This document shows, in pieces, positions 3,901 through 13,133 of a DNA stretch of 64,000 nt. Made by a program: the position numbers and the translations under genes. The notes beneath the pieces were generated by a model. It was not told the origin of the DNA. It saw nothing but the letters and a program-made list of their open reading frames with translations, and made no database searches. The DNA comes from Escherichia coli (GTDB lineage: Bacteria; Pseudomonadota; Gammaproteobacteria; Enterobacterales; Enterobacteriaceae): assembly GCF_003018255.1 (NCBI RefSeq), contig NZ_CP027440.1; one strand, 5' to 3'. The number at the start of each line of letters is the position of its first letter. Position 1 is the stretch's first letter.

Positions 3901-5256
3901 TTATTGCTGGCGTTGCACCCACTCTTTTAGCGCCTGACGTGAAATTTTAATACCGCCGTTTTTCAGCTCCGGCGGCAGATTCAGCCAGCGCACCGGTTGT
4001 TGAAAACGAGCCAGCTTGTCTTTCACCCATTCGTCAAGATCAACGGTTTGCTGGTCATACTCCACCACCGCCACCGGTCGATGACCAAACTCCTTGTCGG
4101 CAACGGGGACGATAAACACCTGCAAAACCGCAGGATGTGCAGCAATTACGCGCTCGACTTCTTCCGGCTGAATACCCTCTCCGCCACTGAAGAATAGATT
4201 GTCTAAACGTCCGACAATGGTCAGCTTGCCATTATGCATCTCACCGCGATCGCGCGTAGCGTACCAGCCTTCGTCATTAACCAGTGAAACCAGTTGCCCG
4301 TTACGCCAGTAACCTTCTGCCATACTGGCAGCCCGCAGCCACACTTCATCATTAACGATTTTCACTTCCCGACCCGGCAGCGGCGAACCAACGTCTGCCA
4401 GACCGTCGGCTTCTTTCGCACACACCGTGGAGGCAAACTCGGTCAGACCATAGCCGCAAAAGCAACGAATCCCCTGCTCGCGCGCCTGTTCCGTCAACTC
4501 GACCGGGATAGCCGCGCCGCCAAGTAACACCGCTTTCAGGGAAACGGAACTGCGGTTAACCAGCAAACGCCAGAGTTGTGTTGGCACCAGTGAAGCGTGA
4601 GTACAGCCTGCCAGCATTTGCTCCAATGGCTGTTTATCACGCACCGTCATCCGCGCACCAGCGTATAACCAGCGCCACATAATTCCCTGACCGGAGACGT
4701 GAAACAGCGGTAAAGAGAGCAACCAGTCATCGTGATCGCCAAACGGAATCAACGATAACACCCCTTCGGCACTGGCAAGATGGGCCTGATAAGTATGGAC
4801 AGCGGCTTTCGGCAGCCCGGTAGAACCCGAGGTCAACGTCATTGAGCACAGACGCGTCGGCTGCCACGTAGCGGCATGTGCGCCTTCAACCCGCTGAATG
4901 TGCAGCGACGTTAATGCCGGAAACGTGTTTTCCCCATCCGGCACCAGCGCAAATTGCAGCGTAAGATTGGGGAGCAATTCCTCAAGTAACGGTTGCGGCA
5001 GCTGTGGATTCACGGGCAGCACCCGCGCCCCGCATTGCAGTAACGCCAGCCAGGCCAGCAGCGTTTGCGGCGTATTCCACGCCCGCAACATCACGCCGCT
5101 GCCCTCAACCACACCCTGCATCGCAAAGCTGGAGGCTAATTCATCGACGCGAGCACAAAGCTCGCGCCAGTTGAGTTGCTCGTCATTAAGACGTAAGGCG
5201 ATGGCTTCTCCCCGCACTTGCCGCCAGTGACGCCACGGCCAGTCAGAGAAGATCAT
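3901..5256 (-). CDS. menE: o-succinylbenzoate-CoA ligase
   Basis: 451-aa adenylate-forming enzyme ORF; last gene of men cluster; overlaps menC stop. Confidence 0.9.
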
Positions 5257-7845: not shown

Positions 7846-9512
7846 AAATGGCTTACCTGCGCCAGCAGTTGCTGGAGGGTTTGCGCACCATCGGTGTCGT
7901 TAACCACCATTTCAATTACCGTGGTGGTCGGCGTGCGCCAGGCGTCGGCAAGTGCCGTTTCAAGTTCCTGCCAGTTTTGCGGACGATGATATTTCAGCTC
8001 GAACATCGCGGCGGCGTGCTCAAAATGGACGTTTTGCGGCATCAGATAGAAACGCTCACGCTCGTTTTTCGGCGTTGGCAACAGCGAGAAAATTTGCCCG
8101 CCGTTGTTGTTCACCACAATTAATACCAGCGGCGCGGAAACCTGACGTAATAACGCCAGCGCGTTGAGATCGTAAAGTGCTGAGAGATCGCCCACAATCG
8201 CCAGCGTCGGTTTGCCACTGGCCCGCTGAACGCCAGCGGCGGTCGAGAGCAGCCCGTCGATACCGCTGGCACCACGGTTGCTGTACACCGGGTAACCTGC
8301 CGGAAGTTGCGAAAGCGCATCAATCAGACGTACCACCAGGCTGTTACCAACAAACAATTGACCCTGTTCAGGCAGATAGTCGCTGATGCGATGCGCCAGT
8401 TGCGCTTCGCCAAACGCATCGCGACGGGCAATAACCGCCTGCATTGCCTGTTCCGCCAGGCGCGGAATTTCAACGCACCAGGGCTGGCGTTTTTCTGCCG
8501 GATGCTGCTCCAGCCAGTCGGCAATATTGGCAATTAAGCGACGTCCACGATGGTGTGCCGGATCAAGTCGCCCTTCGATGTCATCAACAATCCAGTACTC
8601 TTCCGGTTCACAGCTTGCCTGCCATTGCAGGAGCCGTTTGCCCGTCAGGCTGCTTCCCAGTTGCACCACAATTTGTGCCTGTTGCAGTTCGCTGGTCGCT
8701 TTGGCATTGCCTAACCAGAGATCGGCACACGGCAGCGGCTGTCCGGTTTGCGACAGCACGTCGCCAATCAGCGGCCAGCCAAGAGTTTGCGCCCACAGTG
8801 CAACTTTTTTGCCCTCTTCCGCACTCATGCGCCCGGCAACCACCACGCCGCGCTTTTGCCGCCAGAAGAACCAGTCGCGCTGTTTTTCACTTTCCAGACG
8901 AGGCGCTTCACGCAGCCACGGTTTGTCGTCCTGCCACCAGTCGCCCAGCCGCTGTTGCCAGCTAAGCCCGGTGTCGTCCATTTCGCCATACAGCGGTTCA
9001 GCAAACGGGCAGTTGATATGGACTCCGCCCGCATGAAGCGTACCGAGAGCATGGTCGATGGTAGAAACCAGCCAACGTGCAGGAATATCCTGAGTCGGGC
9101 GCGGCAGTGAAATACTGTGCGTGGGGTGAGAGGCGAACATTCCCGGCTGACGAATCGCCTGATTCGCGCCGCAGTCAATTAGCTCCGGCGGGCGATCGGC
9201 GGTTAACAGGATCAGTTTTTCTCCGGTTAACCCAGCTTCAATCAGTGCCGGATAGAGATTTGCTACCGCCGTGCCGGAGGTCACAATCACCGCCACCGGC
9301 TGCTTGCTGACTTTCGCCAGCCCCAGCGCCAAATGCCCCAGTCCACGCTCATCGAAATGGGTGTGGTGAATGAATGCGGAATTCTCCGCCGCCGCTAACG
9401 TTAACGGTGTAGAACGCGAGCCAGGGGCGATACAGATGTGTCTGACGCCGTGACGCGTTAATGCTTCCAGAATGACCGCCGCCCAGCGTCGGTTAAATGC
9501 GCTTACTGACAT
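7842..9512 (-). CDS. menD: SEPHCHC synthase (ThDP-dependent)
   Basis: 556-aa product from internal ATG ([18 protein letters not shown]...) of the over-extended 673-aa ORF. Confidence 0.9.
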
Positions 9513-11334: not shown

Positions 11335-11796
11335 TTACGCCTGAATTACCTCGCGTGCCATCCCAATGTGTGGGATACCATCTTCTTCATAAATATCGGT
11401 CACAGGGATGAAACCAAATTGCCCATAAAAGTTTTGTAAATGCGCCTGCGCCCCCAGATAAATCGGCTTCTCCGGCCAGCGGCGAGTACACGATTCCAGC
11501 GCCTTACTCATCAATTGCTGACCGATTTTTTCACCGCGTAAGGCTTCGCTGACAATCACCCGACCAATCACAACGGGTTGCAGTTCGTCGTCACTTTTCA
11601 GAATCCTCGCATACGCCACCAGTGTCCCGTTATGCCAACCGAGAATGTGGCGATTTTCTCCCTCCAGATCGTCACCATCGATATCCTGGTAAGGACAGTT
11701 TTGTTCCACTACAAATACCGCACAACGCAGTTGTAATAAGGCATAAAGCTGAGAAACGGATAAATCAGAATGATGCAGATCTTGCCAGTCGATCAT
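11335..11796 (-). CDS. elaA: GNAT family N-acetyltransferase
   Basis: 153-aa ORF, GNAT-like; synteny. Confidence 0.85.
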   Translation of the reverse strand: MIDWQDLHHSDLSVSQLYALLQLRCAVFVVEQNCPYQDIDGDDLEGENRHILGWHNGTLVAYARILKSDDELQPVVIGRVIVSEALRGEKIGQQLMSKALESCTRRWPEKPIYLGAQAHLQNFYGQFGFIPVTDIYEEDGIPHIGMAREVIQA

Positions 11797-11860: not shown

Positions 11861-12778
11861 ATGGAATTAATTTTTTTAGGTACTTCAGCCGGTGTGCCAA
11901 CCCGTACGCGCAATGTCACGGCAATATTACTTAACCTGCAACATCCGACCCAGAGCGGTCTTTGGTTGTTTGACTGCGGTGAAGGCACCCAGCATCAGCT
12001 ACTGCATACCGCCTTTAACCCTGGAAAACTGGACAAGATTTTTATCAGTCACCTTCATGGCGATCATCTCTTTGGTTTACCCGGCTTGCTGTGCAGTCGT
12101 TCTATGTCAGGCATTATCCAACCCTTAACGATTTATGGTCCGCACGGTATCCGTGAATTTGTGGAGACCGCGCTGCGGATTAGCGGCTCATGGACCGATT
12201 ATCCGCTGGAAATTGTCGAAATTGGCGCTGGCGAAATTTTCGATGATGGCCTGCGCAAAGTGACCGCTTATCCGCTGGAACACCCACTGGAATGCTATGG
12301 CTATCGTATTGAAGAACATGATAAACCGGGTGCATTAAATGCTCAGGCATTAAAAGCTGCTGGCGTGCCGCCTGGCCCACTGTTTCAGGCATTAAAAGCG
12401 GGCAAAACAATCACGCTGGAAGACGGAAGGCAGATTAACGGCGCAGATTACTTAGCCGCTCCAGTGCCAGGTAAAGCGCTCGCTATTTTCGGCGATACCG
12501 GCCCCTGCAATGCCGCACTTGACCTGGCTAAAGGTGTCGATGTCATGGTGCACGAAGCGACGCTGGATATAACCATGGAAGCCAAAGCCAATAGTCGCGG
12601 TCATAGCTCTACACGCCAGGCTGCGACACTGGCCCGTGAGGCTGGAGTCGGTAAGCTAATCATTACCCACGTCAGCTCGCGCTATGATGACAAAGGGTGT
12701 CAGCACCTGTTACGTGAATGCAGGTCAATTTTCCCGGTGACTGAACTAGCGAATGATTTCACCGTGTTTAACGTTTAA
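11861..12778 (+). CDS. rbn: ribonuclease BN / RNase Z (metallo-beta-lactamase fold)
   Basis: 305-aa ORF with HxHxDH motif ([16 protein letters not shown]). Confidence 0.92.
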
Positions 12779-12793
12779 CTCTGCTTATTATTA

Positions 12794-12822
12794 AAAACAG
12801 GGCGAAACTTGCCCTGTTATCG
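12794..12822 (+). terminator. candidate terminator hairpin after rbn
   Basis: ACAGGGC-GAAACTT-GCCCTGT stem-loop followed by a short U-rich tail. Confidence 0.45.
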
Positions 12823-12965
12823 CAACCCGCGCTACATATATCCACCCACACGGGTATATTGAGCGATTTTTGATATTTATTCATCTCCTCACGCACTATA
12901 TTCAGAGCAATAAGTTGCCTCTTTTTATCTTCATTCAGCACAACCTTTGCAACTAAAAGGAGCCT

Positions 12966-13085
12966 ATGATGGTTACAGTTGTCAGCAATTATTGTCAATT
13001 ATCTCAAACCCAACTCTGTCAGACATTTGCAGAAAAATTTACTGTGACCGAGGAATTACTGCAGTCTTTAAAAAAACACTTATAA
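12966..13085 (+). CDS. hypothetical 39-aa sORF ([39 protein letters not shown]), possibly a remnant of a gene lost at this locus
   Basis: AAAGGAG Shine-Dalgarno immediately upstream of tandem ATG ATG; below the ORF-track size cut-off. Confidence 0.25.
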
Positions 13086-13133
13086 CTCATTACAAATAAT
13101 GATGAAATAACGCTTTTTATTGATAATTTACAT

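Follow-up and report, generated by a model that had tools for sequence, protein, structure and literature searches.

A 39-codon reading frame between rbn and yfbL of Escherichia coli as a probable elaD remnant at a repeat-flanked deletion

ElaD of Escherichia coli K-12 (b2269) is a CE-clan cysteine protease of the ElaD/SseL deubiquitinase family. Its catalytic core comprises residues 228-319 with Cys313, and the C313S exchange abolishes activity (PMC1847702). The gene is reported to be missing from phylogroups B2 and G and from extraintestinal pathogenic E. coli (PMC12575377; PMC1847702). A survey of 2025 detected elaD in no B2 or G strains, and it makes no mention of truncation, remnants, yfbK or yfbL (PMC12575377). 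Earlier, Catic et al. (2007; PLoS One 2:e381; PMC1847702) listed an elaD pseudogene in 536 and F11, two strains of uropathogenic E. coli (UPEC), and attributed it to a one-base frameshift with downstream deterioration. Here, we analysed the interval between rbn and yfbL in a stretch of 64,000 nucleotides (nt) from E. coli (contig NZ_CP027440.1 of assembly GCF_003018255.1; the whole stretch is called the window), which carries an open reading frame (ORF) of 39 codons. The most probable explanation (about 0.92) is that this ORF is a stranded elaD pseudogene fragment at a deletion scar, not a small-protein gene. In contrast to the account of 2007, the loss is explained here by a repeat-flanked deletion of ~3 kb that includes yfbK. 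The pseudogene of 536 and F11 has the same locus and junction as the window and differs from it in nothing substantive.

In K-12 and other genomes with elaD, the gene order is rbn-elaD-yfbK-yfbL. In the window, according to the ORF calls, rbn ends at 12778 and yfbL starts at 13134, leaving a spacer of 355 bp. An earlier reading of the DNA without database searches (the sequence-only reading) had given these coordinates exactly and had noted two genes as absent relative to the K-12 order, which is borne out by the K-12 locus itself. It had also pointed to the ORF with its Shine-Dalgarno motif and tandem ATG ATG, both confirmed in the sequence, and had proposed the retained 5' end of the ElaD gene as its origin. 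This proposal is supported. Residues 1-37 of the peptide are identical to K-12 ElaD at 36 of 37 positions, the only change being S18C, and are followed by His, Leu and a stop codon, these last two codons being derived from the junction. In a scan against NCBIfam, the sole match of the peptide was the ElaD/SseL model NF008812 (positions 1-35 of 343). At the DNA level, the region from rbn through elaD nt 111 shares 97.6% nucleotide identity with a genome that carries elaD (blastn). Homology to the 5' end of the gene, the native upstream spacer and the native position beside rbn are thus all found together, as in K-12. In RefSeq, the bases equivalent to window 12966..13076 in an identical genome (strain 104) are annotated as a partial "deubiquitinase (ElaD)" pseudogene between rbn and yfbL, and the Prokaryotic Genome Annotation Pipeline (PGAP) also calls a partial "deubiquitinase" pseudogene at the same bases in 536.

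The remnant shares residues 1-37, the spacer upstream and the ribosome-binding site with full-length ElaD; residues 38-403, and with them the catalytic core and Cys313, are missing. The catalytic His/Asp/Cys triad and the oxyanion group are not among the retained residues. With 29.6 bits against NF008812, the peptide falls below the curated cut-off of 250 (K-12 ElaD scores 455 bits), and it is not a whole-protein member of the family. Judged from what is retained, the product of the remnant cannot act as a deubiquitinase. The remnant may still be transcribed and translated from inherited elaD signals. Its translation signals are good because they are inherited from elaD itself, and they are no sign of a new small gene.

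The break points were located by a megablast search of 12600..13300 against 5,426 complete E. coli genomes. Most genomes gave a split pattern, in which one match extends to 13076, within annotated elaD, and a separate second match resumes at 13084, upstream of yfbL. Matches that span the junction were found in only about 209-210 of the 5,426 genomes. As 209-210 independent complete genomes have this junction, the adjacency of rbn and yfbL is not an assembly artefact. Homology to elaD-bearing genomes stops at window position 13076, which is elaD nt 111, and restarts about 50 nt before the yfbL start codon. A 15-mer at elaD nt 100-114, TCTTTAAAAAAAACA, lies at the left break, and an imperfect copy of it, TCTTAATAAAATACA, lies at -72..-58 from the yfbL ATG, which is exactly the right break. 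The right copy is the single match to the left 15-mer at no more than 3 mismatches in the next 3,134 nt of K-12, while composition-matched shuffles give an expectation of 0.15 such matches across that interval. The intergenic copy is also present in alleles without elaD. The intact allele therefore has the repeat at both breaks, and the junction holds one hybrid copy, with seven adenines in the window (A7) compared with eight (A8) in elaD. From the junction repeat to the yfbL ATG there are 55 nt in the window and 57 nt in K-12. A first blastn comparison had suggested a 7-bp filler, CACTTAT (13077..13083), between the two matches. We discarded this filler as an artefact that arises when diverged alleles are compared: a multi-allele alignment and the repeat analysis assign these bases to the hybrid repeat and the yfbL upstream region.

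The distance between the two repeats in K-12 is 2,976 bp, which consists of elaD nt 115-1212, the elaD-yfbK spacer, all of yfbK (encoding a 575-aa protein with a von Willebrand factor A domain), 65 nt of the yfbK-yfbL spacer and one copy of the repeat. In this account, a single deletion of ~3 kb between these imperfect, A-rich 15-nt direct repeats took out elaD codons 39-403, and with them the catalytic core and Cys313, as well as the whole of yfbK and the distal portion of the intergenic region between yfbK and yfbL. It left behind the elaD upstream spacer, the Shine-Dalgarno motif and codons 1-37, to which the junction adds two new codons and a stop. The deletion probably arose by replication slippage or by RecA-independent short-homology (illegitimate) recombination. 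Slipped-strand or illegitimate deletions between short direct repeats are described in bacterial genome reduction, and there, too, one hybrid copy stays while the other copy and the interval are lost. In comparison with typical cases, the repeat at this junction is imperfect and A-rich, and the mechanism is read from sequence alone.

Carriers of the junction lack both ElaD and YfbK, and the deletion may also affect yfbL. The best promoter-like site upstream of yfbL in K-12 (CAGACA-16-TATAAT; positions 7976..8003 of the K-12 locus, L004) lies within the deleted part, and because of this yfbL is possibly now read from the putative elaD promoter. If CAGACA-16-TATAAT is the yfbL promoter, yfbL of the carriers would need read-through from the elaD promoter across the translated 39-codon remnant. 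The elaD promoter is presumably located in the 187-bp spacer between rbn and the remnant. This spacer differs from K-12 at 6 aligned positions, and the elaD type of it is found in ~4,455 of the 5,426 genomes. A scan of 12700..13250 for sigma-70 promoter consensus gave no match, and a scan for intrinsic-terminator consensus over the same range gave none either, the hairpin after rbn included. Because these scans are empty, neither the elaD promoter nor the rbn terminator can be placed. In some junction carriers, yfbL itself is eroding. For example, the yfbL start of LF82 has changed from ATG to ATA (L012 2577) and the gene is annotated from the fourth codon, and yfbL is a frameshifted pseudogene in A25 (L005 2612..3566) and DCE7 (L011 2584..3538).

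Several observations weigh against the deletion as reconstructed here. No intact elaD-yfbK genome with the yfbL allele of the carriers was found, the nearest intact alleles sampled being ~96% identical; a ranked sample searched for such a genome showed a gap between 99.4% (carriers) and 95.7%. Because no matching intact genome was found, the ancestral sequence at the right break is reconstructed from diverged alleles. The repeat matches at 12 of 15 positions, the 2-nt difference in register (55 vs 57 nt to the ATG) remains, and the intergenic copy in one elaD-bearing genome, DJH_137urine, has more than 3 mismatches. As to yfbL, CAGACA-16-TATAAT is a consensus match only, and the total of the promoter scan equals the shuffle expectation.

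A junction-specific query matched 209 of the 5,426 genomes. Among them, 74 match at 99% or more, and the examples listed are mostly isolates from poultry or of avian pathogenic E. coli (APEC). A search with the whole spacer found APEC O2-211 to be 100% identical, a strain of sequence type 117 (ST117; PMC6256689). From the 100% identity of the spacer to this strain and to many poultry isolates, we infer that the window belongs to the ST117-like background (phylogroup G). Another 129 genomes match the junction at 95-99%, including the B2 strains LF82 and NRG 857C and an isolate labelled EcST1193, and E2348/69 matches at 95.2%. The locus of UPEC 536 is arranged in the same way and differs from the window at 3 of 178 nt across the remnant and junction. 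The sequence-only reading had tied the absence of elaD to extraintestinal lineages, which holds, since the carriers are B2 and ST117-type and the literature agrees (PMC12575377; PMC1847702). The carriers examined all have one and the same junction, so the deletion was a single event. Among carriers, yfbL alleles share 98.5-99.5% identity; their identity is 92.5% to K-12 and ~95.5-97.6% to the nearest intact alleles, and this divergence points to an old event.

One deletion allele is common to the ST117-type (phylogroup G) and to several B2 sublineages (536, LF82, E2348/69 and the isolate labelled EcST1193), and other B2 clones keep the ancestral locus without elaD. Such a distribution could be read as the spread of the deletion allele by recombination under selection against ElaD and/or YfbK, with the elaD promoter and a translated 39-codon leader fused to yfbL. 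If this were true, the M28 peptidase YfbL would have come under elaD regulation. We regard this scenario as unlikely.

We consider it very unlikely that a mobile element or a site-specific recombinase, and not slippage between short repeats, produced the deletion. The elaD segment has a GC content of 35%, compared with 45-51% in its neighbours, and looks horizontally acquired, which makes activity of a mobile element nearby conceivable. However, no insertion sequence, integrase, inverted repeat or att-like remnant exists at the junction, which consists of one hybrid copy of the 15-nt direct repeat present at either break.

Variation of the remnant bears on whether the ORF could be a genuine small-protein gene with its own function, either as a micropeptide or as a leader peptide regulating yfbL. 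The strong AAGGAG Shine-Dalgarno motif and the ATG start are kept, most carriers examined have the ORF at its full 39 aa, and a few RefSeq records name a "hypothetical protein". However, the signals are those of elaD, the C-terminal residues come from an accidental junction, and PGAP calls a pseudogene. In a small sample of 9 carriers, the ORF has 39 aa ending in ...KKHL in the window and LF82, 39 aa ending in ...KKHS in 536, Rb-3, DETEC-P836 and E2348/69, 44 aa in SC455 (A8) and 34 aa in A25 and DCE7 (a 1-nt deletion), these length differences being caused by indels in T and A runs. All four point differences among these carriers (V6I, C18Y, Q33L and L39S) are nonsynonymous and none is synonymous. 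With two independent frameshift variants and this 4:0 ratio, small as the sample is, the residual ORF gives no sign of purifying selection or upkeep. The variation fits a pseudogene with no visible constraint, and an independent small-protein gene is highly improbable.

A gradual decay of elaD downstream of a single-nucleotide frameshift in its A-run would be closest to the description of Catic et al., who reported "the same single-nucleotide deletion" in an adenosine-rich region (PMC1847702). It would also account for the A7 in place of the elaD A8 exactly where homology ends. Yet what follows the A-run is not degraded elaD but the proximal part of the yfbK-yfbL intergenic region and then yfbL, and ~3 kb including yfbK is gone; moreover, carrier SC455 has A8 with the same junction. 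The alignment thus contradicts this course of events, which is extremely improbable, and the deletion remains the preferred explanation of the scar.

Three types of this locus can be distinguished in the 5,426 genomes. The elaD-bearing type accounts for ~4,245 genomes by subtraction, the type rbn-yfbK-yfbL without elaD for 915 (~17%; including ST131, SE15 and Nissle-type strains) and the remnant type for ~210 (~4%). The latter two resemble each other in having no functional elaD and in occurring in extraintestinal or B2 lineages. The elaD-less type differs from the remnant type in that yfbK is kept, no trace of elaD is present and the 3' end of rbn is different. Where K-12 has 1,504 bp of sequence, this type has a spacer of 155 bp, and its rbn and yfbK differ from those of K-12 in their final few codons. 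The elaD segment replaced not only the 155-bp spacer but also ~8 nt at the end of rbn and ~27 nt at the end of yfbK (L003 4043..4197 vs K-12 L004 4742..6245). Because of this replacement, rbn and yfbK have alternative C-termini in elaD-bearing and elaD-less genomes. Each type of spacer beside rbn, with or without elaD, has its own hairpin.

For comparison outside typical E. coli, species-representative genomes were queried with YfbK, and six loci were returned, from E. whittamii, E. albertii, Escherichia sp. E1V33, Escherichia sp. MOD1-EC7003, Superficieibacter electus and one divergent record labelled E. coli. In all six, yfbK (intact or as a remnant) lies beside rbn, and elaD is found in none of them (0 of 6). 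The rbn-yfbK spacers of E. whittamii, E1V33 and MOD1-EC7003 are 92-96% identical to the elaD-less E. coli type, and that of E. albertii is 52% identical. Traces of elaD were sought in the B2-type spacer without elaD and in the loci of the outgroups, and none was found. Because the elaD-less type shares homology with the locus of other Escherichia species, it represents ancestral absence and not loss.

Since the outgroups keep rbn-yfbK without elaD, three of their spacers resemble the elaD-less type and elaD is low in GC, the adjacency of rbn and yfbL is, on this comparison, derived and not ancestral. The most probable course of events has three steps. The ancestral Escherichia order was rbn-yfbK-yfbL; within E. 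coli, a low-GC elaD segment of 1.5 kb then took the place of the 155-bp spacer between rbn and yfbK, which resulted in the K-12 order; and in one lineage, the repeat-mediated deletion of ~3 kb produced the adjacency seen in the window. An ancestral adjacency, in which the ORF resembles ElaD by chance or arose de novo, has next to no probability, as 36 of 37 residues are identical, the collinearity with elaD at the DNA level takes in 187 bp upstream, and yfbK lies between rbn and yfbL in all other Escherichia species sampled and in Superficieibacter.

Table 1. Features of the rbn-yfbL interval and its flanks in the window
Feature	Position	Strand	Description
rbn (ribonuclease BN / RNase Z)	11861..12778	+	305 aa, intact; flanks the junction on the left; annotated as rbn in the identical genome
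native rbn-elaD intergenic spacer	12779..12965	+	187 bp, kept whole; collinear with K-12 L004 4750..4936
hairpin directly after the rbn stop codon	12796..12818	+	10-bp stem, -16.7 kcal/mol (RNA fold)
Shine-Dalgarno motif AAGGAG of elaD	12957..12962	+	read from the sequence; same motif before K-12 elaD
elaD remnant, first 111 nt (codons 1-37)	12966..13076	+	homology to K-12 ElaD and PGAP pseudogene annotation
39-codon ORF	12966..13085	+	begins ATG ATG; elaD codons 1-37 and junction CAC TTA TAA
deletion junction	13065..13078	.	hybrid copy of the 15-nt imperfect direct repeat, reads TCTTTAAAAAAACA
yfbK-yfbL intergenic region, proximal 55 nt retained	13079..13133	+	directly upstream of yfbL; divergent allele; aligned to intact genomes
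yfbL (M28 family metallopeptidase)	13134..14105	+	intact, 323 aa; right flank; ORF and annotation

Some further features of the interval and its surroundings are summarized here (Table 1). The hairpin after rbn, which the sequence-only reading had picked out, is real (z = -3.66 against shuffles). It belongs to the elaD-type spacer, is identical in sequence in K-12 and has no U-tract on the plus strand. Read on the minus strand, it is followed by TTTTTAATAATAA, and it resembles a terminator for leftward transcription more than one for rbn; both flanking genes are on the plus strand. The AAGGAG motif precedes the two tandem ATG codons of the ORF by 3 and 6 nt, respectively, and the GC content of the window falls to 0.30 at the elaD remnant. 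A minus-strand ORF of 76 aa with a TTG start (12768..12998) overlaps the conserved spacer and the 5' end of elaD, and nothing supports it. A scan of 12600..13300 against Rfam at E <= 1 returned no family.

Window rbn shares 97.8% nucleotide identity with K-12 rbn. In its 3' half, a mosaic patch at ~12300..12634 shows 6-15 differences per 100 nt from the carriers LF82, 536, E2348/69 and Rb-3 and merely 2-3 per 100 nt from K-12-type genomes, and upstream of the patch, up to and including elaA, there is no difference from the B2 carriers. The pattern suggests that the ST117-like lineage took up a short segment of rbn by recombination. The gene elaA (11335..11796, minus strand) occurs as two deeply divergent alleles; that of the window is 100% identical to the B2 strains examined and shares 82.7% of its nucleotides with K-12, compared with 96-99% for the neighbouring elaB and yfbM. 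Downstream, yfbM is followed directly by nuoN (14712..14777), where K-12 has at least yfbN in between, and the other non-K-12 genomes examined match the window. Elsewhere in the genus, yfbL and yfbK also seem to have been lost independently. In E. whittamii (L014 ~4713..4941), only residues 1-51 and 288-323 of YfbL are present, and in the divergent record labelled E. coli, SCPM-O-B-8794 (L019 5758..6280), only short N- and C-terminal parts of yfbK lie between intact yfbL and rbn.

In summary, the feature is already known, as a pseudogene in RefSeq and from the listing of 2007, and it is a case of ordinary gene decay. The present analysis adds the precise positions of the breaks, the repeat that flanks them, the loss of yfbK along with elaD, the junction common to the ST117-type and several B2 lineages, and the polarity given by the outgroups. 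Annotations should describe the ORF as a fragment of an elaD pseudogene and not as a new small protein. Scoring elaD simply as absent in B2 and G merges two different histories, namely ancestral absence with yfbK retained (~17%) and secondary loss including yfbK (~4%). The junction is a clean lineage marker, and it provides a natural experiment on the expression of yfbL when its upstream region is swapped for that of elaD.
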